From contig CAYJPQ010000004.1 in NCBI GenBank assembly GCA_964372085.1, positions 22,247 to 86,246 on the forward strand: a stretch of 64,000 bases of DNA. The letters are read 5' to 3'. Shown here one piece after another: positions 10,717-63,566 of this stretch (position 1 is the stretch's first letter; each line of letters starts with the position of its first letter). Position numbers and translations under genes: made by a program. This DNA is from an uncultured Bifidobacteriaceae bacterium. Its GTDB lineage: Bacteria > Acidobacteriota > Vicinamibacteria > Vicinamibacterales > UBA2999. The notes beneath the pieces are model-generated. The model worked only from the letters and a program-made list of their open reading frames with translations, made no database searches and was not told the origin of the DNA.

Positions 10717-10734
10717 GTAATCTGTGTAATCTGT
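10717..10734. repeat. Tandem 9-mer GTAATCTGT x2 in an intergenic spacer
   Basis: Read directly at 10717-10725 and 10726-10734. It lies in the 63-nt gap between the Wzz-like gene stop and the GT4 gene start. Confidence 0.6.
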
Positions 10735-10737
10735 GGC

Positions 10738-44268: not shown

Positions 44269-45077
44269 ACGCCCCCGATCTTCGACGAGTCGCTCGCCGC
44301 ATTTTCCCTGTGCTCTAGCCACGCAACGCTCAGATTGATCGCCTCTACCGAAGCCGCCGCTACCAAGCCGCAGCGAGTGAAAGGCCCCTGATAGGAGAAC
44401 CGTCGTCCCAAGCTGTCAACCAATATGCCACCGGCCTCGGACAGCACGAGTTCGGCTGGTGCGACGTCCCAATCTCTAACGACGACGTCCTTCACCAAGA
44501 GGTCTGCACGGCCCTGGGCCACCCTGCAGATCTTCAAGCCGATGCTACCCGATTCGAGATAGTTCGGAATATCGAACACGCGCATGAGTTCGGCCGCGAT
44601 GGCGCGCGGCTCCGGGTAGTTGTCGGTCAGGGTGCCCTCGTTGAGGGGACGTGACACAACACGCAAGGGCCGGCCGTTGCAGGTGGCTCCTCCGTTCTCC
44701 TGGGCGAGAAACAGCTCGTCGCTCGCTGGCGCGTAAACGGCCGCCAACACAGGACGGTGCTCTCGCATGAGAGCAGCTTGAGTGACGAACCCATCAAACC
44801 CGTGGGCAAAGCTCGCGGTGCCGTCGATAGGGTCGATCAGCCAATAGGTGTCAGGCCGTTGGTCGGTGAAGCTGCTTGGGTCTTCCTCACTAATGACCGG
44901 AATGGCAGGGGACATGGCCTTGAGTTGCCTTTCGAGCGTCGCATGCGCGGTGCGATCGGCATCGGCTTTGAACTGATAGCCAGGCTCCCAGCGCCCCTTT
45001 ACCGAGCCAGACGCCCTCAAGGCTAAGAGTTCTTCGCCGACGACCGTGACCGCCCTGGAAAGTCCGTCGATCATCAC
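44265..45077 (-). CDS. Inositol monophosphatase/CysQ-family phosphatase
   Basis: Metal-binding motifs are ISEED, WLIDPIDGT and RDWDVAP. Confidence 0.8.
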   Translation of the reverse strand: MMIDGLSRAVTVVGEELLALRASGSVKGRWEPGYQFKADADRTAHATLERQLKAMSPAIPVISEEDPSSFTDQRPDTYWLIDPIDGTASFAHGFDGFVTQAALMREHRPVLAAVYAPASDELFLAQENGGATCNGRPLRVVSRPLNEGTLTDNYPEPRAIAAELMRVFDIPNYLESGSIGLKICRVAQGRADLLVKDVVVRDWDVAPAELVLSEAGGILVDSLGRRFSYQGPFTRCGLVAAASVEAINLSVAWLEHRENAASDSSKIGGV

Positions 45078-45114: not shown

Positions 45115-46278
45115 CTACCCGCGTCCCATGTCGTCGATGCTCGAGAATGTCGTCCCGGTGATTCCGATGTCGGTCAGGTACTTGACGATCGGTGTGAAGT
45201 AGTGTGGCCTGCAAATCACGAGATAGTCGACGGGATTCGATTTCAGCGCTTCAGGAGATTCGATCGCAGGGAGCCCCGTCAGCCACGCCCTTCCGTGTTT
45301 GTAGGAATCGCCATCGAAATAGCGGATGCGGCTGGCATCGAGCGAAAGACTGTACTCATACCCTCCCGCATAAAGGCCCACGCTCTTCCCAGAGTCGGTC
45401 AGTCGCCGTAGGGCCGCGACAACCCTTCCGGTCTTGGCCATAAGCGTCTGCGCGTGACGTCGCAACGCTTCCTCCTCCTCTGCCACCGACTCGGTCGGCC
45501 ATCGCGGCTGCACCGACGCGCTGTAATGACCCCACAGCATCACCTCGTTGCCCGCCGGCGTCGCCAGGAAGTCCGCCGAGACAAATCCCTGAGCCTCAAA
45601 TAGGCGAAGCGCATTCGAAGGCGTAAAGTAGTTCACATGCTCGTGCGCGAGGTGTGCAGGGTTGCCCGCTTCGAACAGCGGCGCAGAATTTGGGACGGAG
45701 TGAAAGAATAGTCCCCCTTCATTCAGGCATTCCCGGCTCGCTTCAAATACTTCGTCGAGTTCGACAATGTGTTCAAGACATCCATATGAATAGATCGCGT
45801 CGAACTTCTCCCGAAGCGATCCCGGCTTGAACAGGTGATTGAGAACGCGAATGCCGTATTTCTGCTGGGCGACTCGCGCCTGAGGCCCAATCTCCAGACC
45901 AGTGACATCGGCTCCCCTCTTCTTCAGTTCATTCAAGAACTCGCCGTTCCCGCTGCCGAGCTCGAGGAACCTCCGGCCTTTGATGTCGCCATCGAACAGC
46001 GCGAGTAGCTTGTCCAATGTCTGGTTGAGACGTCCACGGGCAAGCACGCTTTCGCCCAATGGCGTTGACGGCATGCTGCCAATTGCGTACACCCTGTCCA
46101 AGGCCCGCTGAACGTCATCGGTGAGCTTGAGTCGTGGAACCGCGTAGCGCGGATGGACACCCAGGCAGAACGGCAAAGTGCGTGGCAGGTCATTCGAGGA
46201 TTTCAGATCGACGAGGCCCCAGAAGAACGGGTGGTGGTCGATAGTCAGGAGCGAGACAAAGTCATCCATCAAATTCAC
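45115..46278 (-). CDS. SAM methyltransferase with C-terminal C-methyltransferase-type domain (TylC3-like architecture)
   Basis: Motif I is FLELGSGNGEF. The C-terminal ..VGLYAGGYEY..GDSYKHGRAWLTGLPAIESPEAL..DYLVICRPHYF resembles the Methyltransf_14-type domain. It has a GTGA overlap. Confidence 0.65.
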   Translation of the reverse strand: MNLMDDFVSLLTIDHHPFFWGLVDLKSSNDLPRTLPFCLGVHPRYAVPRLKLTDDVQRALDRVYAIGSMPSTPLGESVLARGRLNQTLDKLLALFDGDIKGRRFLELGSGNGEFLNELKKRGADVTGLEIGPQARVAQQKYGIRVLNHLFKPGSLREKFDAIYSYGCLEHIVELDEVFEASRECLNEGGLFFHSVPNSAPLFEAGNPAHLAHEHVNYFTPSNALRLFEAQGFVSADFLATPAGNEVMLWGHYSASVQPRWPTESVAEEEEALRRHAQTLMAKTGRVVAALRRLTDSGKSVGLYAGGYEYSLSLDASRIRYFDGDSYKHGRAWLTGLPAIESPEALKSNPVDYLVICRPHYFTPIVKYLTDIGITGTTFSSIDDMGRG

Positions 46279-47288
46279 CTCGACTTTTGGACAGCCCGTC
46301 GACGCGTCGCAAAGTCATTAAACGTCAGGAACGCATCGACGGTACGCCGGACCAAGGTCACATCTTCGCGCCAGGTCCACACTTCAGATGCGCTGCTGAC
46401 TCCAATCGCCAGATCAACCAGACGCCCCAGTTCATCAACGCCCGCCGCCTGCGTAAGCGTCGTGGTCGTCGAGAAACGCGGATTGATTTCAAACGGCAGC
46501 GGCCTGCCGTCACGGATGTCGACCCTCAATTGCACGTTGAAAGGGCCATCAGCACGAAGCTCGTCTTGTATGGCCCGACAGAGGCCATCGATTTGGGGCT
46601 GGCGGCGGGTCACGGCAATCCGTGTGATGCCCCGCTTGTCGATAATCTCTTTGGGCACCACCGCCCGCACCACGCCGTCGCGCCACGCCACCACAGACAC
46701 CGTGAACTCGGTGCCCTCCACGTAACGCTGCAATAACATTGCATCGACATCCGGCCTGTTAGTTGAAATGTAAGCATCCAGTTCTGCCGGTGTGGCGATC
46801 ACTCTCACCCCACGGCTACCGCGCCCCACGCGGGGCTTGAGAATCAGCGGAAATGGCATCCCGTCGTGGCGGTCCCTCAAGAGCCAACTCTCGGGAACGT
46901 CGATTCCCACCTCTTTCAGGCGCTTCATGAGCGCGTACTTGTCGAGGCACAAGGCCGTGAATGATGACCTCGGCGCGACGACTGGAATGTGCAACTGGTC
47001 AGCCAGGCTGGCAACTGGAAGCAGTTCTTCATCTACCAGCGGCACGAGGACCGCCACGCCTTCGAGCCGGCAAATATGCGCGAGGGCGTCGGGAAAAGCC
47101 ACGGCACTGGCAAACGGAATGCGATACCCGGCATCCGCTAGATACAAGCCTGCCGCATTGGCGTCAGCGTCAACGGCAACAACTCGATAGCGCCGTGCCC
47201 GGAGCCCCTCAATGAGACTCGGCACAGCCGCACCGCCCGCTCCGGTAACCAACACGACCGGCGCCTTATCAGAGACATGCGACGTCAT
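46275..47288 (-). CDS. ATP-grasp family ligase
   Basis: Contains VLVTGAGGAAVPSLI.., ..PLILKPRVGRGSRGV.., ..EFTVSV.. and ..PFEINPRFS. It has an ATGA overlap. Confidence 0.8.
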   Translation of the reverse strand: MTSHVSDKAPVVLVTGAGGAAVPSLIEGLRARRYRVVAVDADANAAGLYLADAGYRIPFASAVAFPDALAHICRLEGVAVLVPLVDEELLPVASLADQLHIPVVAPRSSFTALCLDKYALMKRLKEVGIDVPESWLLRDRHDGMPFPLILKPRVGRGSRGVRVIATPAELDAYISTNRPDVDAMLLQRYVEGTEFTVSVVAWRDGVVRAVVPKEIIDKRGITRIAVTRRQPQIDGLCRAIQDELRADGPFNVQLRVDIRDGRPLPFEINPRFSTTTTLTQAAGVDELGRLVDLAIGVSSASEVWTWREDVTLVRRTVDAFLTFNDFATRRRAVQKSR

Positions 47289-48832
47289 CCAGCCGCCTTC
47301 ACTGACCCTGGATAGCTGCTGTGAAATGACAAACCAGCATCTGGCGCCTGGGCCTGCGTGAATCCCAAGCGCACAAAGACCGCGCGCGAGGCATGATTCC
47401 CTTCTTTCACGTCGGCCCGAAACCGAAGCAGCCCTCTGTCCGTCATGAGCCTCGTACCCATTTGGACGAGGCGTGTTCCCCAGCCTCGTCCACGCACGAT
47501 CGCATCTACGGAATAGTCAATTCGCGCTTCGTCACGGTCGATGTCAAAGCGGATCTGGCCTACCGGCAAGCCGTCGGCCTCGAGCACGAAAAGGAATGCC
47601 GCCGGGTCGCAGAGCTTCTCCGCGAACCACCGGGTATGAGTGGACCACTCGATCGGCCCGGAATGATTGGCGTTCCGGCGCACCTCTCGGTCATTCGCCC
47701 AGTTGAAGTAAGAGATGACGTCGCCCGAGCCGGCGCGCCGAAGCCGAATATGACCTGCGTTGGTCGGCAAGAGCGTTTCGACAACCCGTGGGAGACCCAG
47801 GCCATCGACGACTATCTCATTCGTGGCACTTGTATCTGTGAGCCAGCCTTCGCTATTGGTGAGCTCCCGCAATGCCCGAGACAGCGAATTAGCGTCGCTC
47901 ATGTGACCAACGTACTTGATTAGGCCAGCGGTTGCGAGCGCTTCTGACACGGGTCTCTGGTTGTCCGCAATGCTGATCGCCACGGTCGGCAACCCAAGGC
48001 ACATCCTCTCCCAGGTGGTTGTCCCGACGGCGCCGATGGCCAGATCAGCCTGCATCATGAAATCCGCAAGATGTTCGCGAGGGCCGTGGACCGTGGTAAG
48101 CGGCCGACCCGATGCCTGCTCTTCAATTGCCTTCCGGTTCGGGTGGTTGGCCCCAACCACGACATCGCATTCCCATCGGCTAAACTCGGGGGCGGAGAGC
48201 ACGCCGAGCGCCAGCGATGTCATGTTCGCTGGATCGGACCCTCCAAAGAACACCAGCACGCGTCGAATGCGTCCGTCTCGCTGACGGCGCAACCGACGGC
48301 GCGCCAGATATTCCTCCCTCAACAACGCGTAGCGCGGGCCGCTCAGCAACATGCACGCGGGGCCCACGAGCCGTGCAGACCGCTCGCCGCCGTCCGTGGA
48401 ATAGTTTTGGTTGAGCAATACGTCACAGTCGTGTCTTCGGTCGGTCCTGTCGTCGATCACCATGAGCTTGACGACGTGTGAGCGCACCCGCTCTTCCCAC
48501 TCTGCGTCAAGACCGTAATGATCAACGACGAGCCAATCTGGCTTTGCCTCCGTCAATGCTGCAATGGTCTCTGCCGCGTCTCTCTCCTGCGATACTCCGA
48601 GCCAAGCAGCATAGTCTTCGCCACTCGCGGTCTCCCTTCGTGAAGGTGCTGGAAGAAACGTCGTGCGCACGTTACGCTCCTTCAAGAGAGCACCGAGATG
48701 TCCGTGGTGCTCTCGACAGATGAATCGCGTTTCCGCACCGCGCTTACGCAGGCCGTCGGCGAGCGTCAAACAGCGTGCAACATGGCCTGTCCCCATGCCA
48801 GTGGACGCGTCCGCGCGAAACACCACCTTCAT
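47285..48832 (-). CDS. pseG: Bifunctional PseG (UDP-2,4-diacetamido-2,4,6-trideoxy-beta-L-altropyranose hydrolase) / PseH-like GNAT N-acetyltransferase
   Basis: The N-terminus is MKVVFRADASTGMGTGHVARCLTLA. The C-terminal ~160 aa are GNAT (..NWANDREVRR..HTRWF..VGQIRFD..RGRGWG). I set the start at ATG 48832 (ATGA overlap). The 74 extra codons in the track ORF look non-coding. Confidence 0.85.
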   Translation of the reverse strand: MKVVFRADASTGMGTGHVARCLTLADGLRKRGAETRFICREHHGHLGALLKERNVRTTFLPAPSRRETASGEDYAAWLGVSQERDAAETIAALTEAKPDWLVVDHYGLDAEWEERVRSHVVKLMVIDDRTDRRHDCDVLLNQNYSTDGGERSARLVGPACMLLSGPRYALLREEYLARRRLRRQRDGRIRRVLVFFGGSDPANMTSLALGVLSAPEFSRWECDVVVGANHPNRKAIEEQASGRPLTTVHGPREHLADFMMQADLAIGAVGTTTWERMCLGLPTVAISIADNQRPVSEALATAGLIKYVGHMSDANSLSRALRELTNSEGWLTDTSATNEIVVDGLGLPRVVETLLPTNAGHIRLRRAGSGDVISYFNWANDREVRRNANHSGPIEWSTHTRWFAEKLCDPAAFLFVLEADGLPVGQIRFDIDRDEARIDYSVDAIVRGRGWGTRLVQMGTRLMTDRGLLRFRADVKEGNHASRAVFVRLGFTQAQAPDAGLSFHSSYPGSVKAAG

Positions 48833-49512
48833 TCGAGCCGCCGGCCCAGCATGAACGCCTCGGCGGCGTGGGCACCAACCGTTGCACCGCGCCATCGCGC
48901 CAGATGTTCGACGGCTTGGCGACAACGCGGATGTGGCCATCCGCGCAATTCGGCGGCGTAGGCATCCAGCGCCGAGAGCTTGAGTTCCAGCGTTCCAGAG
49001 ATGTCGACGAACCAGTTCGGCACGAACGCCGGGGCGGATCCAGGCAACTGCCATTCAGTACTCGAGGCGACCTCGAAGGCAAGAATCGTTCTTACCACGT
49101 GGCCGGACTGGGGGCGGCAGGCCGTCGCCACGGCCTCGTGTGTGCGTCGGTGATCGATGTTCAAATCTCCAGCGTGATGCGTGAGGATCATCTGGGGTCG
49201 ATGCTGAGCGACAAGCGCCTCGACGGCTTGCGCAATGGACAGGAGTGCAACCGTGTCCATGCGATTGTCCGGCAAATCGCCAAAAGATACCGACGTCACT
49301 CCGAGCGTAGCGCTCGCTTTCCTCGCCGCGGCACGGCGCGACGCGAGTTCACTCTGCTGTGCGTCGGAGTCGCCAGGACGCGAGAACACGCCGTCCGCCA
49401 AGAACGCGACGTGAACGACACTCCCGCGTTTCGCGAGTGTCGCAATCGTGCCGCCACAGCCGAGGACCTCGTCATCAGGATGGGCCGCCACGATAAGCAC
49501 GGAACCGTTCAT
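48829..49512 (-). CDS. PIG-L/LmbE-family de-N-acetylase
   Basis: Contains VLIVAAHPDDEVLGCGGTIA and ..HHAGDLNIDH.. It has an ATGA overlap. Confidence 0.85.
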   Translation of the reverse strand: MNGSVLIVAAHPDDEVLGCGGTIATLAKRGSVVHVAFLADGVFSRPGDSDAQQSELASRRAAARKASATLGVTSVSFGDLPDNRMDTVALLSIAQAVEALVAQHRPQMILTHHAGDLNIDHRRTHEAVATACRPQSGHVVRTILAFEVASSTEWQLPGSAPAFVPNWFVDISGTLELKLSALDAYAAELRGWPHPRCRQAVEHLARWRGATVGAHAAEAFMLGRRLE

Positions 49513-52359: not shown

Positions 52360-54261
52360 TCATCCTCTTCCGTGATCTCGCTCGACAGATGAGCCTCCGC
52401 CCAGACCCTGTACGCTCTCGCGACTCCACGAGGCTAGCTCGTCTTTCCATTGCCCGAGCCAATCATCGCTGGTGCGTGCCAAGTGGTGGCAGAAGTCCTT
52501 CCGTGCGCGCTGGACGTTGGGGGCGGTCCACCATGCGGCTGGATTCTTGTACACGGCATTGACCTGATCCGCCGCTGATTCAGGTGAATAGTGGAGTATT
52601 CCAGCAGCGCGGAGGACTTCAAAGCAAGGCCGCTGCGATTCCCTGGTCGCACAATCATCGGGGTTCCAAAACACGACCGACGGGAAGTTAGCGGCCAATG
52701 CCTCCAAATATGTAGTCCCGTTCGTTGTGTGAACAGCCATACGGCACTTCTTGAGTTGGACCAGAAAGTCGGATTCCTGGCCGAGCTGTTTCTTGCGACC
52801 GCGCTGTACTTTGAGACCGGGGTTTGATTCCTCCCATCGCTCTCGCTCCTCCCACAAATCGTTGAAGTATCGCCACAGAAGCAGATCGCGCGATGCGGCA
52901 CACAACTCCCGCAGGAAGCGCGCCTGCTCGTTCATGTAACGAACCATGTTGGGCCCAGCCGTGTCGCTCTCTGCAAACATCCTGTAGCGGGCCATGGTGG
53001 TCGCAATCCACATAATGCTACCTGCCGAATTGGCAGACGTCAGCGCCAACGCCGCAGTCCTCAGCCGAAATGAAGGCATCGGCTTGGCGTTTGCCGCACC
53101 GTCCATCGACGATCCCCAACTGTAGTAGCGATCAGAAATCCGCAAGAAGTGCTTCTCGATACTGGAATACCGGGCCGTGCCGTAGTAGCCGCCGTGTTGG
53201 CTGAATAGCAGCTTCGTCCCACTGCGCTCGCTGTGATGAGCCGCCCAGAACTCGAAACACAACCGGTGGTTCATTGACGATGCGGTTAGCACCACTTTAG
53301 GGAAGCTCGGCGAGACAGCGATCGCCCGTTCGTGTGCGTATTTGTAGTGCTCGACATAGGCCATGGGGATCTGCTCTGGCAGCAGTTCATCAAGCAGACG
53401 CTCAAAACGATCGATGCCAGCATCGAACGCCAGCCCACTCCTCATCGACCAATCGGGAGCAACGGGCTCAAACTCAATCTTTTCTCCATGATAGAGAAAG
53501 GGCACCTGGCGCAGAGAGCATTGGAGCTTGATCAGATCCCAAATGGGCAGGTACATACTGCCGACGAAGACGACCTTAGTTGGAGCGTTGCGCAGTAGAC
53601 GGGGATAGATTTGCACGATCGCCGTAGCCAGCCCTTGACTGACAACGGTCCCAAGCCCTTTCCTCGAATGGCGCAGGATTTCCCCGCGAACTTTCGAAAC
53701 GAACGACTTCCTCTTGGTGCCCTCAGCGACACCCGCACGGGGGCGATGGCTGAAATCCTTCTCCTCGTAAGGGATTGTGCCAAGGCTCTTGATGATTCGG
53801 CTGTACAAATAGAGGTTGTAGTCGTCGAAAGAAAAGGACGGTATGTTCTCAGGTGCCCACGGCGTCGTCGAGCATATCCACGTTTTGGTGACTTGTCCGC
53901 CTGCCTCGGCGGAGAGAATCGACAGGTAACGATCGTACAGGGCGTCAACGAAGGCCCGCAGCCAGATGCCGATTAAAATCCGCCAATACCTGCAGGAGTA
54001 GTTGACTCCGTGAATAGCATTGAGCCGCTCGGTGAAGAGCAAAAGGTACTTTTCGTAGATTGCGTCGAGGCGTTGCCAATCGGTGGCAAATTTCTCCCGA
54101 TCATCCCAATGATAGGGCAGCACCTCGTGCTTGATGCTTGACCATACTTCGCGGTCTTTGAAGAGCTTGCACCATTCCCCCAGAAACAGGATCTCTTCGT
54201 CCACCTTCCAAAATCGGCGATCCGCTGTCGTGATCAAGAACATAGGTTGACTTGAGAGCAC
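52360..54261 (-). CDS. LIC12162-family putative (nonulosonic acid) transferase
   Basis: The N-terminal MFLITTADRRFWKVDEEILFLGEWCKLF matches my recollection of the LIC12162-type family found next to NulO genes in O-antigen regions. It is A/T-richer than its neighbours. I recognised no other family. Confidence 0.5.
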   Translation of the reverse strand: MLSSQPMFLITTADRRFWKVDEEILFLGEWCKLFKDREVWSSIKHEVLPYHWDDREKFATDWQRLDAIYEKYLLLFTERLNAIHGVNYSCRYWRILIGIWLRAFVDALYDRYLSILSAEAGGQVTKTWICSTTPWAPENIPSFSFDDYNLYLYSRIIKSLGTIPYEEKDFSHRPRAGVAEGTKRKSFVSKVRGEILRHSRKGLGTVVSQGLATAIVQIYPRLLRNAPTKVVFVGSMYLPIWDLIKLQCSLRQVPFLYHGEKIEFEPVAPDWSMRSGLAFDAGIDRFERLLDELLPEQIPMAYVEHYKYAHERAIAVSPSFPKVVLTASSMNHRLCFEFWAAHHSERSGTKLLFSQHGGYYGTARYSSIEKHFLRISDRYYSWGSSMDGAANAKPMPSFRLRTAALALTSANSAGSIMWIATTMARYRMFAESDTAGPNMVRYMNEQARFLRELCAASRDLLLWRYFNDLWEERERWEESNPGLKVQRGRKKQLGQESDFLVQLKKCRMAVHTTNGTTYLEALAANFPSVVFWNPDDCATRESQRPCFEVLRAAGILHYSPESAADQVNAVYKNPAAWWTAPNVQRARKDFCHHLARTSDDWLGQWKDELASWSRESVQGLGGGSSVERDHGRG

Positions 54262-54276: not shown

Positions 54277-55080
54277 CTACCAGACGCCCCACCCTCCGTC
54301 CACAGCCAGGTTCTGGCCTGTCACATAGTGGGAGAGACCGCTGGCGAGGTAGGCGATGGCACCGCGAAAGTCATCTTCCGTTGCCATGCGGCCGAGAGGG
54401 GTCCTGGACTCATATCGCCGGACGAACACGTCGGGTTGATTCCTGAACACGCCACCGGGAGAGATAGCATTCACGCGCACTTGCGGAGCCAGTGTCGTTG
54501 CCATCCAGCGGGTCAGCTGGACCAAGCCACCCTTTGATGCGGCATAGGCTGCGGGATTGCCCATCGTCGTGTCGTCGTAAAGCCTGTGGTCGGGCCCCCA
54601 GGACGCATAAATCGACGCGATGTTAATGATGCTCCCACCGTCGCTCCGCCGGAGTAGTGGAGCCAATCCCTTGGACAGGTCGAAGGCCGCCGTGAGGTTG
54701 ACCTCAAGAGCCCGGCGCCAGCTGTCAACCGTCTGGTGTTCGAAGTCCGCGACCCAGCCATCCAAGTTCTCTGTTCCAACAAACGCCGCATTGTTGATCA
54801 GGATGTCGAGTCCCCCCGGGAGTTCACGGACCGATACCAGCAGCCGGTCGCGTTCAGTCTGTGACTCGAGGTCACAATCGAAAGTGTGGACTGTCGTCCC
54901 CCATTCCTCGTGAGCCTGCAGCACCAGAGACCGTTGGTCAGACCCCGGCCGATCGACCAGGACCAGTTCGGCCCCCAATTCCGCAAGGGCAAGCGCAATG
55001 ACCCTGCCAATATGCCCCGCAGCACCCGTGACCAGGGCTCGCCTGCCGGTGAGGTCCATTAGTTCTGCCAGGGTTGTCAT
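54277..55080 (-). CDS. Short-chain dehydrogenase/reductase (SDR)
   Basis: Contains TGAAGHIG, NNAA and YAASKGG. Starting at ATG 55080 gives an ATGA overlap. Confidence 0.88.
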   Translation of the reverse strand: MTTLAELMDLTGRRALVTGAAGHIGRVIALALAELGAELVLVDRPGSDQRSLVLQAHEEWGTTVHTFDCDLESQTERDRLLVSVRELPGGLDILINNAAFVGTENLDGWVADFEHQTVDSWRRALEVNLTAAFDLSKGLAPLLRRSDGGSIINIASIYASWGPDHRLYDDTTMGNPAAYAASKGGLVQLTRWMATTLAPQVRVNAISPGGVFRNQPDVFVRRYESRTPLGRMATEDDFRGAIAYLASGLSHYVTGQNLAVDGGWGVW

Positions 55081-55781
55081 GAACGACCCTTGTGTCCTTC
55101 CATGAGACACTCCGCAACAAGGAAGTCGAGCGGTGTGTCGATGTCAATCGCACGCTCGACAGGAACCCGCACAGGGCGAACTCTTCCGTCGAATAGGCCG
55201 TCTCGAGCCATCAAGAAGTCAGGCCGGACGACGTAAGCAACCGTTGACATGTCGAACACTTCAGGGGTGTCTTGCCGCCGGGCGATCGAATGGCTTGGAG
55301 GTATGACCAACTCCACCGTTCCGTTCGCGTTGGCCTTGACCATATTGAAGTACGGGCTGCGGTGAGCCTCAGTCACCGTGATAATCACATCCGCGTCGCC
55401 TTTCTCGTATTCGTCCAAGCACCGTTCAAGATCGGCGACCGCTCGCAGGGGAGCCGTGGCAGGCACGACAATCAGGACATCGGGTCCGGCACCATCGCTG
55501 TCTCTAAGATGCGCCATGGCGTGGCGCCACACCATCCACTCTGGGCTGTCGTCCTGGGCCAGTTCCACCGGTCGCGAGAACGGCACCTCCGCGCCGGCGG
55601 CCAAGGCAATGTCGGCTATCGCGGCGGAGTCGGTGGAAACGATGACTCGGCTAATCCGTTTGACGGCCTTGGCGTGCTCGATGGACCAGACAACCAATGG
55701 CCGACCACCCAACGGGCGGATGTTCTTGCCAGGGACCCCTTTCGAACCGCCCCTGGCGCAAATCAATGCAACGACGGTCAT
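55077..55781 (-). CDS. Acylneuraminate/legionaminate-type cytidylyltransferase (CMP-NulO synthetase)
   Basis: Starts MTVVALICARGGSKGVPGKNI... I set the start at ATG 55781. The 97 upstream codons of the track ORF overlap the preceding gene and look like junk. Confidence 0.85.
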   Translation of the reverse strand: MTVVALICARGGSKGVPGKNIRPLGGRPLVVWSIEHAKAVKRISRVIVSTDSAAIADIALAAGAEVPFSRPVELAQDDSPEWMVWRHAMAHLRDSDGAGPDVLIVVPATAPLRAVADLERCLDEYEKGDADVIITVTEAHRSPYFNMVKANANGTVELVIPPSHSIARRQDTPEVFDMSTVAYVVRPDFLMARDGLFDGRVRPVRVPVERAIDIDTPLDFLVAECLMEGHKGRS

Positions 55782-55785: not shown

Positions 55786-56820
55786 TCACTGGGTCCCGCC
55801 CCGACCTGCCGCCGGCTCGACCGCTGCGAGGCTCCCGGATTCCGACGAGCGGCGTATGGCATCGATGATCCGCAGCACGGCCAAGCCGTCATGTCCGGAC
55901 GCGCTAGGACTACTGGCATCAGCGATACATGCCAGGAAGTGCCGCCATTCAGACTCATAGCAGTCATCGCTCTCCTGCCGGGGCGCGAACAGCGACTCCC
56001 AGTGGCTGGCACCCGCCTCAAACACCTCAACCGTGCCAGCCAATGCGTTCCAGCGCAGCGAACCCAATTCACCGATGGCAGTGCAGTTCCTGCTGGTATC
56101 GTGGCGGATGAAGTCCATACTCAGAACACCCACCAACGGAGCAGCCCCCATTCTGGGTGCGAAGCCCAGGATCACGTGGGCTGTATCTTCCACGTCGATC
56201 TCCAGACGACTCTGCTTGCGATGGACCGCGTTGATCCACTCCACCTCTCCAAATATCCATCGCAGATAGTCGATCTCATGGCTCAACTCTAGAAGCACAC
56301 CGCCGCCGAGCGCGGCCTGTGCCGACACCGTCCTCCGATAGTCTGAGCCGGGGCGCCATGATGGTAGGAACTGACCGACCTCGGCCCGTACCGACAGGAC
56401 CGAGCCAATCCGTTCTTCGTGGAGTAAGGCACGGAACCTCTGCAAGGACGGCCAAAACCTCAGGTTGTAGCCCGTCATCAGCGCAACGCCGCGGCCCTCG
56501 CAAAGGTCAATCAGTTCAGATACCCCATTAGCCGAACTGGAAAGGGGCTTCTCGACCAATAAGTGGACGCCGGCGTCAGCCAGGCGACGAGCCACCTCAA
56601 TATGATGGCTCGCCGGATTCGCGATCACAGCAACCTGCGGCTTGAACGCCAGCGCCTCCTCGATCGTCGTGACGCAGCGGTCAATGCCGGTGACCGCCAT
56701 GTCGCCGCAGCTTCGATGCCTCAACACGGCCAGCTGCGCGTCAGGTACAACCCTCCGAATAACTCGCGCATGAAGGGCGCCAATGCTTCCGAAGCCTACA
56801 ATGAGAAGACGTGCGGCCAT
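55786..56820 (-). CDS. Gfo/Idh/MocA-family oxidoreductase
   Basis: Has the N-terminal Rossmann LIVGFGSIG, plus ..LLVEKPL.. Length is 344 aa. Confidence 0.85.
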   Translation of the reverse strand: MAARLLIVGFGSIGALHARVIRRVVPDAQLAVLRHRSCGDMAVTGIDRCVTTIEEALAFKPQVAVIANPASHHIEVARRLADAGVHLLVEKPLSSSANGVSELIDLCEGRGVALMTGYNLRFWPSLQRFRALLHEERIGSVLSVRAEVGQFLPSWRPGSDYRRTVSAQAALGGGVLLELSHEIDYLRWIFGEVEWINAVHRKQSRLEIDVEDTAHVILGFAPRMGAAPLVGVLSMDFIRHDTSRNCTAIGELGSLRWNALAGTVEVFEAGASHWESLFAPRQESDDCYESEWRHFLACIADASSPSASGHDGLAVLRIIDAIRRSSESGSLAAVEPAAGRGGTQ

Positions 56821-56883: not shown

Positions 56884-58083
56884 TTAGGATGGTTTGTGGG
56901 CGATAAAGTCGACGTGGCGGACGCCCACAGCCCCCTTGAATAGGTGCTTGCACGATGTGATATACGCGCGAATCTCGGGCAGGTTTGCCGTTTCGACCAA
57001 GTCAATATATCCCTTGGCTTCAGCGACAAACTCCACCATTCGCGCCTGAAACGGCTCCAGGATGGACAATTCTTTGAATGCCGAGGCAGCCCCGTCGGCA
57101 AGTTCATGGAACTGACGTCGATCGAGCGAGGAGCCAGAATTGAGGTTTGCGACGTAGCTCGTCAATGCTGACAGGTTGTCTGCATATCGGCGATAGCCGG
57201 CGCCCAGGGCCTGCACGTTCTGGCTGTCGCCTTGGTTCTGCAACAGCCAAATCGTCTCAGCGATGCTCGCCATGCCCCTCGTCCGTGTGGCGTCGAACTT
57301 CGGCCGGTGGTGCACCGAATCGCCAATTAGCGGGAGCATGAACGGCGGATAGCTTGAGTAGTGTGTCAGTCCGCAATCCGAAAACCAGCCCATGACCTCA
57401 TCGACCGACGGATCGTCCTGGCTTTGAATCACCCACCTGTCGAAGATGATTGATCTGCGGGTGCGATTGACGAACGACTGGCTTCGATCGATGTCTTCCT
57501 TGAACAGCGCCTCGGAAACGTCCACCATCTCGTCCCACGAGTTGGCGTGGCGATAGACAGCGTGGCGTTGGAGCATGTTCTGGAATCCACCTGCCTTGTT
57601 GGGATCGCCAAAGATCAGAAAGCCTCCAGGTTTCACAAAGCCTGCGATCTTCTTGAAGGCACCCTGTTTGTCCGCGGTGTGGCTCAACACGCCGCGGCAA
57701 TGAACAATGTCGTACTTGACCGGCGATTCGTAGTCAAAGATCGAGGACTGGTAAAATTGGTGCTTGCCACTCTTCGCGTAGCGGTCGAAGATCTGCCGGG
57801 CAATCGCCAATGCCTTGTCGTTCATTTCTACGAGCGTGCAATTCGCGCCCCACTCGGCGAGGGAGATCGTGTTCTCGCCCGTGCCCGCACCGAAGTCGAT
57901 GAGTTCGGCCCCGGCAAACATCTTTGGCGGAAACTTGAACAAATCTCGATAGGTGTACGCAGCGTTGGCCGCATACTGACGAAATTCCGCTTCTGATTTG
58001 TCGGAGAAGTAGATCGAAGGAATCTCCTCCTGAAACGTCTTCAGCGTGGCTCGTTCAACTTCTCTAATCTTTTCGGGTGCCAT
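56884..58083 (-). CDS. Class I SAM methyltransferase with long C-terminal extension
   Basis: Motif I is LIDFGAGTGENT. ATG 58083 is preceded by ACGAGGAACA, which is SD-like. The ORF-track start is 58113. Confidence 0.8.
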   Translation of the reverse strand: MAPEKIREVERATLKTFQEEIPSIYFSDKSEAEFRQYAANAAYTYRDLFKFPPKMFAGAELIDFGAGTGENTISLAEWGANCTLVEMNDKALAIARQIFDRYAKSGKHQFYQSSIFDYESPVKYDIVHCRGVLSHTADKQGAFKKIAGFVKPGGFLIFGDPNKAGGFQNMLQRHAVYRHANSWDEMVDVSEALFKEDIDRSQSFVNRTRRSIIFDRWVIQSQDDPSVDEVMGWFSDCGLTHYSSYPPFMLPLIGDSVHHRPKFDATRTRGMASIAETIWLLQNQGDSQNVQALGAGYRRYADNLSALTSYVANLNSGSSLDRRQFHELADGAASAFKELSILEPFQARMVEFVAEAKGYIDLVETANLPEIRAYITSCKHLFKGAVGVRHVDFIAHKPS

Positions 58084-58146
58084 TGTTCCTCGTTTCCTTT
58101 GGGTTGCGGACATTCAGCGCCAGGTGCCGATCTTGAGCAGCAGGAC

Positions 58147-59121
58147 TCATGACGACTCGGACATGAGCGCGGCTGCCAGGTTGGCCGAATCTTCGCGTGC
58201 CAATTCCAGGCAACTGGCGTTCACCTCCTTGCCGGCCGGCGCCAGCAGATTGGCTCGGAAGCCGCACTGGATACCAAGATCCGTCAAGACGGTCAGCGAG
58301 TCACCGCTGTACGAATTGAGAGGGTGCGACATGCACCGCGGCCGGTGGCCGGTCACAGTCGCGATATGTGTATAGTTCCTCTCATACTGGTCCTGCTGCT
58401 CCTGGCGGGACAGCTGGGCTATATCATAAGGGTGGTCGTAGGAATGAAGACCCACTTGGTGGCCGCGGCGCGTCAATTCGCGCAGGTCCGCGTCGTCCAG
58501 CCAGAGACCCCGGGCCACCTCTTCCACATCGACGCCGCGCTCTGTGAGGATGCAATCCATCAGCCCTTCAAAAATCGCGCGATTCTCCGTCTGATTCCTC
58601 AGAAATCGGAACTGCACGTCGCTCAGCGTATAGAAAGGCGCGGCCTCGCGCATCAGCGCTGCGTAAGCGGCGTAACTGGATGAGTTCAGCTGGGTTAGCA
58701 TATCTGGAGCGCAACGAGACAAGAATTCCTCGCTGAGGGCAGCCATCCCGCCAGCCTCGCCGGCAACGTAGCTGTAGACTTCGCTCCTCACTGGGCGGCC
58801 CGAGAAGACACAGGAGTAGACGAACCAGAACGCCTGCAACCCATACCGCTCGAGCACTGGCAGAGCATGGTCAACTTGACAGCGCAATCCATCATCAAAG
58901 GTGATGCAGATGTCTTGATCGCAGAGCCTGCCCTCGCCCAACCGTGACAACCATTCGTCAGGCGCAAGAATGCTGCCGATCCCAACGTGCAGGAGGATCC
59001 TCTCAAAGTCCTCGGACGAGAGTGCACCCTGCCACGCCGTTGTGGCGTCCCCCGGACGAAATCGGTGGAACATGAGGCCGTGCGGGAAACGGCGTTCGCC
59101 GCCTGCGGAGCGCCGACTCAC
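58147..59121 (-). CDS. NodB-homology (CE4) polysaccharide/sugar deacetylase
   Basis: Contains ITFDDGLR and GLHSYDHP. Starting at GTG 59121 gives a GTGA overlap with the amidinotransferase stop. Confidence 0.8.
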   Translation of the reverse strand: MSRRSAGGERRFPHGLMFHRFRPGDATTAWQGALSSEDFERILLHVGIGSILAPDEWLSRLGEGRLCDQDICITFDDGLRCQVDHALPVLERYGLQAFWFVYSCVFSGRPVRSEVYSYVAGEAGGMAALSEEFLSRCAPDMLTQLNSSSYAAYAALMREAAPFYTLSDVQFRFLRNQTENRAIFEGLMDCILTERGVDVEEVARGLWLDDADLRELTRRGHQVGLHSYDHPYDIAQLSRQEQQDQYERNYTHIATVTGHRPRCMSHPLNSYSGDSLTVLTDLGIQCGFRANLLAPAGKEVNASCLELAREDSANLAAALMSESS

Positions 59122-60296
59122 CCGAAATAGTCCTCGATAACGCTGTCGCGTACCGTGTCGAGAGTGGCGCAATGAATGCCGCCACCCTGAGTATAGATGT
59201 GCCGCATTCGCACCGGGACGGGCGTGAGACCGTGCTTCTCGAGCACCCGCATGAGGTTGGTCTGGCGCTCGTCGACCACGACGGTCGATTGGTCGAGCGA
59301 CAGGAAGTTCATGCCCACCCAGGGCGACGACATATCGTTGAGATTCGTGACAAACCCGAGCGCCTCGATCTGCTTGGCGAGCTTGTCGCGAACATCCTTC
59401 TGGAAATCAAGCTCCGGCTGCGACGTCGGCGCGACGTCTTCGAAATAGATCTTGTCCCACTTATCGAACAGTTTGGGGCAATTCCGTTCACCGACTCGTT
59501 TGCTGTTCAGCATGACGAGACCCGGTCGCAAGCACAACACTGTGGAATCGATGTGACTCGATCGGTAGATATCTTCCGTGGTGTGGACTCGGTATTCCGC
59601 GCCAAGAACGCTCTGGAGCCACTTGGCGCTCTTGTGGTTGCCCGAGCTGGACACGAGACAAAGCAGATCGCGCCCCATTCGCACGGTGTTCGCGGCCTCG
59701 AAGACGATTTCGAGCTCATTGAGCCTGTGCAGCTTCTCGACGCGGCCACCAGTCAACTCCATGAATCGACGGTCTTCATCCGTGAGCTTTCGTTCTCCTT
59801 CGTCACGATAATACGGCTCCAGCACTGGCTGGTCGAGCCGCGGGCGCGGCCCGCAAATCCAGACAAAACCCTCATCAAAATACTCATACCAAATGTCGTA
59901 TAAGGTCGTCGCCTCGAAGTAGCGGCTGCGCAAGTACGACGGACTCTCGATGACGGTATTGCCGACGACCAGGTGCAGATCGCGCACGTTGTAACTATTG
60001 TTGCCGGTCGACTGCCAGAACGGAGTCGCATACATCCGCGCAATGTCGTGCACCTTGGGACGATGCACCTTGACGCCGAACCGGGCGATGCTATCGGCGA
60101 GGCCGTTCAGGTCTTCCTCAATCTCATCGAGGAACCACTGGGGGTGCGCTTCGTGATTCAGTGCCACTGCCTGCGCCAGCGCATCTCCGGGAATCGGATT
60201 GGGTCGTGGCCACGTAAGAACTGCATGAGTTCCTTCAGCAGTGCCAACGATGACCTCCCGAAGCTTGTCCCATTCGTTGTGGCTGTTGATTTTCAC
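59118..60296 (-). CDS. Amidinotransferase (StrB1 / glycine amidinotransferase family)
   Basis: 392 aa with ..SSHIDSTVLCLRPG.. and the C-terminal catalytic-Cys context YTQGGGIHCATLD, characteristic of L-arginine:X amidinotransferases. The GTG start overlaps the upstream TAG by 1 nt. Confidence 0.75.
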   Translation of the reverse strand: MKINSHNEWDKLREVIVGTAEGTHAVLTWPRPNPIPGDALAQAVALNHEAHPQWFLDEIEEDLNGLADSIARFGVKVHRPKVHDIARMYATPFWQSTGNNSYNVRDLHLVVGNTVIESPSYLRSRYFEATTLYDIWYEYFDEGFVWICGPRPRLDQPVLEPYYRDEGERKLTDEDRRFMELTGGRVEKLHRLNELEIVFEAANTVRMGRDLLCLVSSSGNHKSAKWLQSVLGAEYRVHTTEDIYRSSHIDSTVLCLRPGLVMLNSKRVGERNCPKLFDKWDKIYFEDVAPTSQPELDFQKDVRDKLAKQIEALGFVTNLNDMSSPWVGMNFLSLDQSTVVVDERQTNLMRVLEKHGLTPVPVRMRHIYTQGGGIHCATLDTVRDSVIEDYFG

Positions 60297-61396
60297 TATT
60301 GGTTACCCTTTTTCGTAAAAGGTGGAACTGCGATTTTCGATCCCCCGTCCAACTGCGCACGTTGCAGATCGTCCGGCAGTCCCAGATCAATCCATCGTTC
60401 GTGCACCGGATAGACAATGGTCCGCCTGCCATCATCCCGGAGACGGCTGAATAGCGTCGTCATATCACATCGTTCACCGACTGCTACGTGGTCGAGCGCA
60501 CTCGGCTCGATCGCGTAGATTCCTGCATTCACGTAGTCGCGTACGACGGGCTTCTCCTCGAGTCCGACGATTTCCAGGCCCTTCGTGCGGACCACGCCAA
60601 ACGGATGCTGCCATTCGTGTTGCCGTACCGCCATCGTCGCCTCCGTGGCGTGACGGCAATGGAAGTCGAGAAGCTCTCCGTAGCGAATGTCCGTGAGCAC
60701 GTCACCATTCGAGACGATGAACGGCGCCTTGGGTCGCGGAGAAATCAGCCCGAGCGCCCCGGCAGTGCCAAGAGGAACGCTTTCCCTCAAGTAGTCGATT
60801 CGGGCCTGCCATCGACTGCCGTCACCGAAATAATCCTCGATCATTTGACCGAGATAGTGAATGGCCAGCACGAAATGGCTGAACCCCTCGCGCCTCGCCC
60901 GTTCGATGATCCATTCCAGCATCGGCTTGCCGTCAACGGGCAACAGAGGCTTCGGACAGTTCTCGGTCTGTGGCATCAGGCGCACGCCTTGGCCGCCAGC
61001 CATGATCACCATGATATTGGGCCGGTCCGCAGGTGCGAGCAGCTCGTGGAGCACGTGCAAGCCGACGACCTTTCGGCCTTCACCGATGACGGGCAACGCG
61101 AAGATCTCGTTGGCCTGCATGAGACCGAGCACCGCCTCATGCGTCAACTCAGGGGGCACAACGAGGGCGTCGTGAAAGATGATGGAGTCGATCGCGCTGG
61201 TCAGTTGGAGGCCACGGAGCAGACCGCGGCGAATGTCGCCGTCGGTGATCGTGCCGACGAACGTACCATCGGCTGACACGACCAGGGCAATCTGCAGCGC
61301 GGACTCGTTCAGGCAACGAATGGCATCCTGCACGGTGGCGGCGGCGGGCAGCAACGCCTTGCGCCACGACTGACCGCGTGTCCGGCGCACGGTCAT
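60296..61396 (-). CDS. CBS-domain nucleotidyltransferase (PtmE-like sugar-1-phosphate nucleotidyltransferase)
   Basis: An N-terminal CBS pair (..LVVSADGTFVGTITDGDIRR.., ..LPVIGEGRKVVG..) is followed by MAGGQGVRLMPQTENCPKPLLPV. Confidence 0.85.
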   Translation of the reverse strand: MTVRRTRGQSWRKALLPAAATVQDAIRCLNESALQIALVVSADGTFVGTITDGDIRRGLLRGLQLTSAIDSIIFHDALVVPPELTHEAVLGLMQANEIFALPVIGEGRKVVGLHVLHELLAPADRPNIMVIMAGGQGVRLMPQTENCPKPLLPVDGKPMLEWIIERARREGFSHFVLAIHYLGQMIEDYFGDGSRWQARIDYLRESVPLGTAGALGLISPRPKAPFIVSNGDVLTDIRYGELLDFHCRHATEATMAVRQHEWQHPFGVVRTKGLEIVGLEEKPVVRDYVNAGIYAIEPSALDHVAVGERCDMTTLFSRLRDDGRRTIVYPVHERWIDLGLPDDLQRAQLDGGSKIAVPPFTKKGNQ

Positions 61397-62568
61397 GCGG
61401 TTCCCACCGAAGGCGAGAGATCGCAGAAGTGCTTCTTCAGTATGTTGTCCAGTGGTACATCTCGCAGGGTCTGCACGACGCGCTGGCTCGCGCCGCCGTC
61501 ACCGTAGGGGTTACAAACATCGCCAAGGGTTGCCTGAAAAGGCGCCGAGTACATCTTCCTCAGTGCAGCGACGATCGACACGCGATCGGGCTTGCAATCG
61601 ATCACGCTCGCGGCCCTCAGCCGGCCCCGCTGACGATCGCCAATATTGATCGTGCCTTTCCGAAAGGCCGGCGCCTCGATCAATCCGCTCGATGAGTTGC
61701 CGACGACGGCATCCACGTATTGGAGACAAGATAGATACAGCAACTGGCCGAGCGACGTAAAGGCCTTTGTATGGGGACGGTCGGCGACGTGCTGCGCGAC
61801 CAGATCGATGATCGGGCGGTTCCCGGGATCGGCGTTGGGCAGCGTGAAGATCACGCGTGTGTCCCTGACCTCATCGAGTGCGGCGAGCAGTTCCTGCACC
61901 TGTTGTGCCGAGGTGTCCGGTTCGAGCGTGACCGGATGAAAAGTAGCGAGAAGGCACTTCGGGCCAAGTTCGAAGCCGAGCGCCTCTTCGAGTTCCGGCC
62001 GAGTCAGCAGTTTTAGCCTCTGGATACTGTCAAGGCCCAGGCCGCCGACCAGGAAGACTCGGGAAGGGTCTTCCCCGAGCTGAATCACGCGCCGCTGGTA
62101 ATCCTCGGCCGCCACGAAATGGAGGTGGGACATCTTGGTGATGGAATGCCGGAAGGCTTCATCGAACGCGCCCTCACTAACCTCGCCACCGTGCAGATGC
62201 GCCACTGGAATCCGCGCCACCGTCGCCGCGGCGACGGCCGAGAATACCTCGAAACGATCGCCAAGCACGAGGAGCACGTCCGGCTGCAGGCGGTGTAACG
62301 CCTCACCGAAGCCGATGAGCCCCAGACCCATGGACTTGGCAAGGGCCGTAGGCGTATCGGCGTCCAACAGTGTCTCGATCTTGGTGTCGATCGAGATGCC
62401 GTCATTTTCGATCTCGCGATAGGTAAGGCCAAATGCCGGCGACAGATGCATACCCGTGGCAACGACCTGCAGGCGCAGCCCCGGGGTCGCCACAATGTCC
62501 CGCATCACCCAACGCAGCAGACCGTAATCGGCGCGTGAACCGGTTACGACACAGATCCTACGGCTCAT
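61393..62568 (-). CDS. UDP/GDP-HexNAc 2-epimerase (hydrolysing), NeuC/LegG type
   Basis: Starts RICVVTGSRADYGLLRWVM.. and contains ..HLHGGE.. It has ATGA overlaps on both sides. Confidence 0.88.
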   Translation of the reverse strand: MSRRICVVTGSRADYGLLRWVMRDIVATPGLRLQVVATGMHLSPAFGLTYREIENDGISIDTKIETLLDADTPTALAKSMGLGLIGFGEALHRLQPDVLLVLGDRFEVFSAVAAATVARIPVAHLHGGEVSEGAFDEAFRHSITKMSHLHFVAAEDYQRRVIQLGEDPSRVFLVGGLGLDSIQRLKLLTRPELEEALGFELGPKCLLATFHPVTLEPDTSAQQVQELLAALDEVRDTRVIFTLPNADPGNRPIIDLVAQHVADRPHTKAFTSLGQLLYLSCLQYVDAVVGNSSSGLIEAPAFRKGTINIGDRQRGRLRAASVIDCKPDRVSIVAALRKMYSAPFQATLGDVCNPYGDGGASQRVVQTLRDVPLDNILKKHFCDLSPSVGTA

Positions 62569-63566
62569 AGCTCGATGAGCTCGTCGGGCGAGTAGTCTCG
62601 CCTCGCCGTGCGGCCGATTGCCTCATCCCATCGCATCGGCGAAATGCCATTGCCTGGGCGCTTGACGGCGAGGTTGGTTTCGCTCAGGGTCTCGCCCGCG
62701 CGAATCGCTCGCGCCGCCACCAGAGACTTCCGGGCCGCCGATCTGGTCCTCACTTCGCTGGCGCTGGGGCGCTTGATGCCGTTACCTAGCGCTTGTTCAA
62801 TATTCCGAATCGCCGCCACCATGACGGCCAAATCATCGGGATCGAGGCTCGCTTGATGGTCCGGACCGGGCAGGGTCCGGTCAATCGTGAAGTGTTTCTC
62901 GATTACCGTTGCACCGAGCGCGACAGCCGCGATGGCGACTTCAATCCCTGCTGTGTGGTCCGAATAGCCCACGGACACGCCGAAAGCCTCACGAATCGAC
63001 TGCATCGCTAGTAGGTTCACGTCTGGAAAAGGAGTGGGGTATTCGGTGCTGCAGTGCAGGACAGTGATCCTGTCGCGGGGTGTGCCGGCATCCTCCAGCA
63101 CCTCCAGCGCCGCCTCAATTTCGCCCATCGTGGCCATTCCGGTTGAGAGCATCGTCGGCTTGCCGTAGCGGCCCACGTGCCGCAGATAAGGCAAATTCGT
63201 TATCTCTCCAGATGGGATCTTGAATCGATCCAAGCCCAGCTCGACCAACATATCGATACTATCTGTGTCAAATCCGCTCGATAGGAAGCCGATGCCCCTG
63301 GAATGACATTGCGCGATCAGTGCCTCGTGCATTTCTCGGCTTAGTTCGAGTTGGCGAATCATCGCGTGCTGTGATTCGCCCGCAGCGGTCGCGCGCCTTT
63401 GATACTCGGCCTTGGCAGCGTCAACGGTCACAAGGCGATCAGCACTAAATGTCTGGAATTTCACCAGATCGGCGCCGGCGTGAGCGGCCACGTCAATCAG
63501 TTGGCGGGCCATGGCTAGAACGCCATTATGATTCACGCCCGCCTCGGCGATGATAAGCGTCCTCAC
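62565..63566 (-). CDS. NeuB-family nonulosonic acid synthase (legionaminic-acid-synthase-like)
   Basis: Contains IIAEAGVNHNG..ADLVKFQT..FKIPSGE..LSTGMAT..YSDHT..IEKHFT. The start is GTG. Confidence 0.88.
   Translation of the reverse strand: MRTLIIAEAGVNHNGVLAMARQLIDVAAHAGADLVKFQTFSADRLVTVDAAKAEYQRRATAAGESQHAMIRQLELSREMHEALIAQCHSRGIGFLSSGFDTDSIDMLVELGLDRFKIPSGEITNLPYLRHVGRYGKPTMLSTGMATMGEIEAALEVLEDAGTPRDRITVLHCSTEYPTPFPDVNLLAMQSIREAFGVSVGYSDHTAGIEVAIAAVALGATVIEKHFTIDRTLPGPDHQASLDPDDLAVMVAAIRNIEQALGNGIKRPSASEVRTRSAARKSLVAARAIRAGETLSETNLAVKRPGNGISPMRWDEAIGRTARRDYSPDELIEL

Follow-up and report, generated by a model that had tools for sequence, protein, structure and literature searches.

What might an amidinotransferase be doing in an operon for a legionaminic acid (Leg)-type nonulosonic acid (NulO)? 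NulOs are major determinants of bacterial surface charge, of phage and predator recognition and of immune mimicry, and their N-substituents drive their diversity. The question is raised by a 64,000-nt stretch of DNA (hereafter the window, identical to part of the 137-kb metagenome contig L001), in which three co-directional open reading frames (ORFs), all on the minus strand within 56884–60296, encode an amidinotransferase (AmT; 59118–60296, 392 aa, GTG start), a CE4/NodB-type de-N-acetylase (hereafter CE4; 58147–59073, 308 aa from a conserved Met) and a class I S-adenosylmethionine (SAM)-dependent methyltransferase (MT; 56884–58083, 399 aa). The first-pass annotation of this DNA had placed these genes between a PtmE-like nucleotidyltransferase and genes for a Gfo/Idh/MocA oxidoreductase, a cytidylyltransferase and a short-chain dehydrogenase/reductase (SDR), and both ORFs and profile matches confirm this arrangement. 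The answer that we develop here, which sequence and analogy make reasonably probable, is that the cassette would be a substituent-swapping module of a Leg-type NulO pathway, giving a 5- or 7-(methyl)guanidino NulO. What the analysis shows is the family, active-site residues and fold of each enzyme, together with a close linkage to NulO genes that extends across distant phyla.

Enzyme families and active sites

Both its sequence and its modeled fold place AmT in the L-arginine amidinotransferase family (StrB1/AGAT; pentein fold), as the first-pass annotation had proposed for this 392-aa protein. A phmmer search against the Protein Data Bank (PDB) returned StrB1 (1bwd, E = 5e-73), SxtG (6e-49), AGAT (6e-42) and HsvA (6e-41), with no match under E = 0.1 beyond these, and the same four amidinotransferases also head the Foldseek ranking of the AlphaFold2 (AF2) model (E = 9e-27 to 5e-22 / 1e-22, TM(target) 0.71–0.77). 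The superfamily hydrolases follow far lower, with dimethylarginine dimethylaminohydrolase (DDAH) at E = 1e-7 and arginine deiminase (ADI) at E = 1e-4, a gap of about 15–20 orders of magnitude in Foldseek E-value. Pfam and NCBIfam contain no model fitted to this clade, which has no characterized member: Pfam PF02274 (ADI) matches no more than the 56 C-terminal residues, at a sub-threshold 19 bits (cut-off 22.8), and NCBIfam gives only a 26-bit DDAH match. A DDAH/ADI label drawn from these sub-threshold profile matches is overturned by the PDB sequence and fold searches; we note that JGI annotations frequently label AmT homologues "dimethylarginine dimethylaminohydrolase".

Residues were mapped to StrB1 and AGAT numbering through HMMER alignments. 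Cys376 (StrB1 C332), in the motif GGGIHCATLD, and His248 (H227) are invariant in 82/82 homologues, and AmT together with these 82 sequences keeps the guanidino-binding Asp106 and Asp250 (AGAT D170 and D305) as well as Arg267 and Ser324 (AGAT R322 and S355), which hold the arginine backbone. Of the expected Cys/His/Asp triad, therefore, the Cys and His stand, but the third member is Glu200, with Glu in 48 of the 49 members of the same sub-clade, whereas Asp occupies this position (StrB1 D179/AGAT D254) in 19/20 sequences of a sister clade and 11/12 StrB1-like sequences. An acid with a longer side chain is thus retained, and by alignment Glu200 is a signature of the window's CE4-type sub-clade.

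The CE4 assignment also holds, with a Pfam PF01522 (Polysacc_deac_1) match of 72.2 bits (cut-off 23.1), a NodB-type fold and the motifs CITFDDGL and GLHSYDHPY, which contain the ITFDDG and HSYDHP quoted at first pass. In all of 45 homologues and 39 locus-derived sequences, the catalytic Asp and the Asp-His-His metal triad are kept as D60/D61 and H210/H214 (numbered on the 308-aa form; TFDD and H-x3-H), and an R and a D residue are likewise invariant. The C-terminal LxH motif is absent; a near-invariant His3 in the N-terminal MFHRF could be the catalytic acid (motif 5), as in permuted PgaB/IcaB-type enzymes. The AF2 model (pLDDT 92.7) has an additional helical insert (approximately aa 96–202), and its best Foldseek matches, PplD (5e-9), IcaB (2e-7), PgaB (5e-7) and BpsB (9e-6), place the modeled structure in the de-N-acetylase branch of CE4. 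A PDB sequence search returned generic deacetylases only, which is uninformative on substrate. Because no hydrophobic segment was found in CE4 (nor in AmT or MT), we take the enzyme to be cytoplasmic; a secreted, polymer-level enzyme was rejected, as there is neither signal peptide nor membrane segment.

The class I assignment of MT likewise holds, with five Pfam models above cut-off over aa 48–185 (Methyltransf_23/31/12/11/25) and a motif I, IDFGAGTG, of which D73, G75 and G77 are invariant in 27 orthologues. These orthologues share a conserved C-terminal extension of about 220 aa and many invariant residues in both halves, and the PDB sequences matched are generic methyltransferases, which say nothing on substrate.

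The junctions had been described as TAGTG and GTGA overlaps. The former stands: the TAG stop of the PtmE-like gene and the GTG start of AmT have one base in common (60298–60294). GTGA also exists, where a candidate CE4 GTG at 59121, with a good Shine–Dalgarno sequence (GAGGA) 9 nt upstream, overlaps the TGA stop of AmT (whose protein ends in YTQGGGIHCATLDTVRD), but the start conserved in 38/39 homologues is the ATG at 59073. The CE4 start is ambiguous, giving either 324 aa with the GTGA overlap or 308 aa past a 44-nt gap, and the longest ORF begins at 59172. Gaps of 33–63 nt, with no overlap, separate CE4 from MT and MT from the following gene, MT starting at 58083 (399 aa, metagenome gene calls) or at an ATG at 58113 (409 aa). 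The G+C content at third codon positions (GC3) of the three genes, 0.70–0.73, equals that of the neighboring genes; with both GC and GC3 matching the surroundings, a recent insertion of the trio was ruled out.

Linkage to nonulosonic acid genes across phyla

The AmT family is a single cluster in a 50%-identity library, with its next relatives at ≤46% identity, and metagenomes hold numerous homologues at 68–86% identity across phyla. From contigs representing one genome per species, two scans recovered 45 and 80 AmT loci, with carriers among Acidobacteria, Gemmatimonadetes, Planctomycetes, Lentisphaerae, Leptospiraceae, many lineages of the candidate phyla radiation (CPR), SAR11, Prochlorococcus, SAR202 and a DPANN archaeon. 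In a neighbor-joining (NJ) tree of 82 homologues and StrB1, 70 NulO-locus sequences stand apart from 12 StrB1-like ones (including Nocardiopsis, Nonomuraea and Paenibacillus), and this NulO clade spans about 70 species-level genomes, most of the genes lying in NulO loci. Two insertions, of about 22 aa at 155–194 and about 19 aa at 284–315, are common to both NulO sub-clades and absent from the StrB1-like sequences, a sequence feature that supports the clade independently of the tree. In the DPANN archaeon GW2011_AR10 (L094, CP010424), a CE4-type AmT of 52% identity lies beside NeuB, NeuC and a CMP-transferase, which implies, on sequence, transfer across domains. A phage collection also holds amidinotransferases, in CP220-group Campylobacter phages and Synechococcus phage S-SCSM2R (PQ898602, NC_027997, MT932329), the cyanophage gene having a DegT-type aminotransferase and a radical SAM gene close by (PMC12801897); at ≤28% identity these were set aside as too distant.

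When all ORFs of the 45 species-level loci were clustered, CE4 was found within 3 kb of AmT in 39 and adjacent to it in 32, the two reading frames frequently overlapping or nearly touching. NeuB and the CMP-transferase each occur within 10 kb in 28/45 loci, and NeuC (23/45), Gfo/Idh/MocA (17/45), SDR (16/45) and PtmE (15/45) are also found nearby; a PglD-like acetyltransferase occurs in only about 10/45. The 409-aa MT is present in 27/45 and adjacent to AmT in 23/45. Gene order varies (AmT-CE4-MT, MT-AmT-CE4, CE4-AmT-MT and AmT-MT-CE4), with these shuffled neighborhoods spanning Acidobacteria, Planctomycetes, CPR, Leptospiraceae, SAR11, Prochlorococcus and a DPANN archaeon, and the shuffling therefore points to selection for proximity rather than to shared descent of one arrangement. 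The neighborhood is more than chance, recurring in dozens of species-level genomes of unrelated phyla, and the co-occurrence with NulO genes anticipated by the first-pass annotation is strongly borne out, AmT lying nearly always in NeuB/NeuC/cytidylyltransferase loci or in pseudaminic acid (Pse) loci. The trio as a unit survives in part: AmT and CE4 are the core pair, with MT facultative, CE4 more often accompanied by a formyltransferase and the sister clade lacking CE4.

Where the 409-aa MT is missing, other class I methyltransferases often adjoin AmT. One orthologous methyltransferase with every AmT was thus rejected, as at least three unrelated MT families adjoin it, with no specific similarity among them beyond generic class I features. 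Because three unrelated families adjoin AmT in different lineages, methylation looks coupled to it.

A reciprocal scan with the CE4 family found many members that lack an AmT neighbor yet lie close to NeuB, NeuC and a CMP-transferase; of about 26 such loci, 16 have a formyltransferase that starts directly after CE4, and in a wider scan a Formyl_trans_N gene follows CE4 immediately in 51/79 species-level loci, mostly near NeuB/NeuC/CMP-transferase. The CE4 family is not AmT-specific, and pairing with a formyltransferase is commoner. Because both alternative neighbors modify primary amines, CE4 would free the amine that its neighbor uses, which is our strongest computational argument. The pair of CE4 and formyltransferase, present in cultured strains of Halobacillus (L206, L208), Ectothiorhodospira magna (L263), Herbaspirillum sp. 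CF444 (L268) and Pseudobutyrivibrio sp. YE44 (L273), is on sequence a probable general route to N-formyl NulOs. For Ca. Kuenenia, a preprint of 2026 describes CMP-NulOs in which one amine is free and one formylated; it ascribes them to a deacetylase and formyltransferase pair in a Leg-type cluster and places both steps at the nucleotide-sugar level (bioRxiv 10.64898/2026.04.20.719630). Both amine-modifying partners of CE4 can coexist: in the SAR11 single-cell genome Pelagibacteraceae AG-464-P07 (L025), CE4, the formyltransferase and AmT lie in a row at 8408–11170.

The other half of the NulO clade is formed by 20 homologues of 42–55% identity, of which 15 lie directly after PseI in tight PseB-PseC-PseF-PseG-PseI operons; carriers include Nitrospira, Sphingomicrobium, Pseudanabaena and the cultured Calothrix sp. 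NIES-2100. AmT is usually flanked here by a small methyltransferase (the gene order of locus L104 is ABC-PseB-PseC-PseG-PseF-PseI-MT-AmT), and no CE4 and no ligase were found in these operons. A PseH-like acetyltransferase was detected in only 2 of about 15 of these loci (tblastn, 8-kb flanks, without a matched control), and Pfam scans of their unassigned ORFs found none. A free 4-amine is already present on the PseC product of the Pse pathway, and the sister AmT could therefore replace PseH without a deacetylase; the gene content is suggestive of an AmT that amidinates the sugar amine directly in place of PseH. The loci with AmT directly after PseI include L092, L095, L096, L098 and L102–L106. 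In Calothrix sp. NIES-2100 (L097, AP018178 7,252,013–7,269,173), AmT (8001–9152) is followed by a methyltransferase–PhyH dioxygenase fusion (9450–11549). In the Nitrospira metagenome-assembled genomes (MAGs) L095 and L105, AmT adjoins HisH/HisF-like genes, a 400-aa PseA/WbpG-like gene with no Pfam match and radical-SAM/SPASM genes, and on this gene content some Nitrospira loci may make both acetamidino-type and guanidino-type substituents.

The operon and its surroundings

All genes of the window's Leg-type operon lie on the minus strand. In the order of transcription, AmT, CE4 and MT are preceded by a NeuB-like NulO synthase (62565–63566; NCBIfam TIGR03569, 494 bits), a NeuC-like hydrolyzing 2-epimerase (61393–62568; TIGR03568, 466 bits) and a PtmE-like protein with CBS and sugar-1-phosphate nucleotidyltransferase domains (60296–61396; Pfam NTP_transferase, 108 bits, plus CBS), and are followed by a PtmF-like Gfo/Idh/MocA oxidoreductase (55786–56820), a PtmB/LegF-like cytidylyltransferase (55077–55781; CTP_transf_3) and a PtmA-like SDR (54277–55080), these three assigned by Pfam and NCBIfam with starts taken from metagenome gene calls, and then by a 633-aa LIC12162-family transferase (52360–54261; TIGR04331, 460 bits). 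Just upstream of NeuB, beyond the window on the identical contig L001, lies LegB (TIGR04180, 521 bits; cut-off 475), accompanied by an ABC transporter. LegB, NeuB/LegI, NeuC/LegG, the PtmE-like protein and the LegF-type cytidylyltransferase are thus present together; the LegC aminotransferase and LegH N-acetyltransferase were not found by Pfam and NCBIfam models within the window's Leg operon. The nearest candidates lie about 30 kb away, a DegT gene (24861–26036) that reaches 196 bits with the LegC model, under its cut-off of 420, and a NeuD/PglD-like gene (26121–26762). Since LegC and LegH are missing from the operon, a Leg stereochemistry of the NulO is only presumptive.

Downstream lies a complete Pse operon with PseB, PseC, PseF, a PIG-L deacetylase, a PseG-PseH fusion, an ATP-grasp protein, a second methyltransferase, an inositol-monophosphatase (IMPase)-like gene and PseI. 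Part of it (45115–49512, and 44265–45077) comprises the PIG-L deacetylase (48829–49512), the ATP-grasp ligase (46275–47288), the methyltransferase (45115–46278) and the IMPase-like gene, and this gene content suggests that an N-acetyl group of the Pse sugar is also swapped, here for an amino-acid-type group. The ORF of the PseG-PseH fusion (47285–49054) begins about 74 codons ahead of the PseG model and overlaps the PIG-L gene; its true start is probably an internal Met near 48830. The LIC12162-family transferase between the two operons is a candidate NulO transferase with homologues in a few related loci (L011, L028).

A large polysaccharide locus fills the remainder of the window, with GT4 glycosyltransferases, methyltransferases, two asparagine-synthase-like genes (28495–30492 and 36011–37870), a Wzy_C/O-antigen-ligase-like gene (22564–23889) and a weak second CE4/GH57-like gene (37870–38706). 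The G+C content drops where this locus starts, from 0.65–0.70 (1–22000) to 0.56–0.62 (22000–64000).

Proposed chemistry, its alternatives and known systems

The guanidino reading would place all steps in the cytoplasm, on a soluble sugar substrate that may be a nucleotide-hexose, a free NulO or a CMP-NulO. CE4 would strip one N-acetyl group from an intermediate of the Leg pathway, leaving a primary amine; AmT would load the amidino group of L-arginine on Cys376 as a thiouronium intermediate, with release of ornithine, and pass it to the exposed amine to form a guanidino group, which MT, where present, would most likely N-methylate. The product would be zwitterionic, a 5- or 7-(methyl)guanidino NulO that the PtmB/LegF-like enzyme would activate with CMP before its incorporation into the polysaccharide encoded by the surrounding locus. 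What we infer here comprises the acceptor, the order of steps, the modified nitrogen, the site of methylation, arginine as the donor and the guanidino-NulO product itself.

Several observations weigh against this reading, or at least against its details. The data fit N5 or N7, and action at the hexose or the NulO stage, alike. Amines are already free on intermediates of the Leg pathway (the 4-amino sugar and, in the PtmE route, GDP-GlcN), so amidination could do without a deacetylase, and the role of CE4 might lie in a different step. In AmT, Glu200 stands in for the triad Asp, as described above; its AF2 model is of moderate confidence (pLDDT 74), with low values at 323–341 and 369–379 around the catalytic Cys loop, and given these regions no pocket-level conclusions were drawn from it. 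The NJ tree carries no bootstrap values, the scarcity of PseH in the sister clade comes from tblastn and Pfam counts within 8 kb, without a genome-wide or matched control, and nearly all AmT carriers are MAGs or single-cell genomes of uncultured organisms. Finally, the Kuenenia deacetylase may or may not belong to the window's CE4 family: locus tags are missing from the preprint text, and the 80 CE4 loci returned do not include Kuenenia.

The alternative that we consider unlikely, yet that deserves the most attention, is that AmT takes over from the N-acetyltransferase and acts on the LegC/PseC product, at the C4 amine of a nucleotide-hexose, giving a 7-guanidino NulO, with the job of CE4 independent of it. 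CE4 would then, for instance, leave N5 free or ready it for another group, and the product class would not change. Such a C4 route would account for the sister clade, whose Pse operons lack CE4 and mostly PseH as well, for a window operon that has LegB without LegC or LegH, and for the rarity of the PglD-like acetyltransferase among the 45 loci; it leaves unexplained why CE4 so often adjoins AmT, with touching or overlapping frames, and the formyltransferase that directly follows CE4 elsewhere is most simply understood if CE4 makes its neighbor's amine. The Glu200 signature also suggests an acceptor unlike that of the Pse-type clade.

Less probable still is a scheme in which AmT and MT make a free, creatine- or homoarginine-like guanidino compound that is either N-acyl-linked to the amine freed by CE4 or used outside the glycan. 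Creatine synthesis has this established logic, with AGAT acting first and a SAM methyltransferase second, amino-acid-derived N-acyl groups are known on NulOs, and the window's own Pse operon has an ATP-grasp ligase. However, no ligase or acyltransferase that co-varies with AmT was found among the 45 + 20 loci, tight operons such as L104 leave no room for one, StrB1, the closest solved relative, has an aminocyclitol phosphate and not an amino acid as its acceptor, and constant embedding in NulO operons over more than 15 phyla speaks against a non-glycan product. We give very little credence to the remaining possibility, that AmT is a deiminase/DDAH-like hydrolase or inactive, CE4 acts at the polymer level and the two are adjacent without shared chemistry: the partial ADI match, the frequent JGI label and the polymer- or lipid-linked-glycan substrates of CE4's best structural neighbors point that way, and are set against a full-length similarity and fold ranking that widely favor transferases, a 68–86% identity across phyla that implies strong selection on AmT, a CE4 with no export signal and the linkage statistics above.

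Returning to the guanidino reading, a literature search brought up no relevant paper that connects legionaminic, pseudaminic or nonulosonic acid to amidinotransferases or guanidino groups, so that the first-pass view of this modification as previously undescribed holds for the literature searched, while the logic of a deacetylase plus partner has a recent precedent in formylation. A broader claim, that the whole AmT clade is dedicated to NulOs and that the surfaces of SAR11, Prochlorococcus, Acidobacteria, CPR bacteria and a DPANN archaeon carry (N-methyl)guanidino Leg or Pse made through a modular CE4 and amine-modifying partner, might as easily hold as fail. If true, the guanidino group would be a new chemical class on NulOs, permanently cationic and introduced by enzymes whose family has until now been associated with antibiotics, toxins and creatine, in a clade widespread among environmentally dominant uncultured lineages, and could thus bear on phage–host interactions in ocean and soil. 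Amidino and acetyl additions are near-isobaric (0.011 Da apart), which puts the predicted product very close in mass to the common di-N-acetyl NulO, and existing NulO surveys may have overlooked guanidino forms. The swap of an N-acetyl group by CE4 and a formyl- or amidinotransferase partner would, in turn, be a rule that helps to annotate many NulO loci, and cultured material exists both for the sister clade (Calothrix sp. NIES-2100) and for CE4 with formyltransferase (Halobacillus, Herbaspirillum, Ectothiorhodospira and Pseudobutyrivibrio).

Among known systems, the closest to AmT is StrB1, the L-arginine:inosamine-phosphate amidinotransferase of streptomycin biosynthesis (PDB 1bwd), with which it has family, fold, Cys, His, both Asp, Arg and Ser in common, at about 35% identity over the Foldseek alignment and higher similarity in three HMMER-aligned blocks; AGAT, SxtG and HsvA are more distant. 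The acceptor of StrB1 is a phosphorylated aminocyclitol, chemically near an amino sugar. Unlike StrB1, AmT has the insertions of about 22 and 19 aa and Glu for the triad Asp, and is found in cell-surface NulO operons of uncultured bacteria rather than in an antibiotic cluster. Creatine synthesis by AGAT and GAMT resembles the proposed order of events, an amidinotransferase followed by SAM-dependent methylation of the new guanidino group, but has a small molecule as acceptor, whereas the MTs that adjoin AmT are mutually unrelated and generically class I.

A similar logic is seen in Campylobacter, where the genes for acetamidino and N-methylacetimidoyl groups sit between leg genes (bioRxiv 10.64898/2026.04.20.719630), and where PseA/PtmG and PtmH turn a neutral N-acetyl group on a NulO into a cationic, N-methylatable amidine-type group. 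The enzyme classes are unrelated, as the first-pass annotation had maintained: PseA/PtmG are ATP-dependent amidotransferases that act on the acetamido carbon to give acetamidino (N-C(=NH)CH3), whereas AmT, by pentein-fold amidino transfer from arginine, is predicted to give guanidino (N-C(=NH)NH2), for which prior deacetylation is needed. The pair ascribed to Ca. Kuenenia stuttgartiensis matches the scheme proposed here in its logic, in that an amine is freed by deacetylation and then re-decorated, with a formyltransferase as the partner there and AmT in the window.

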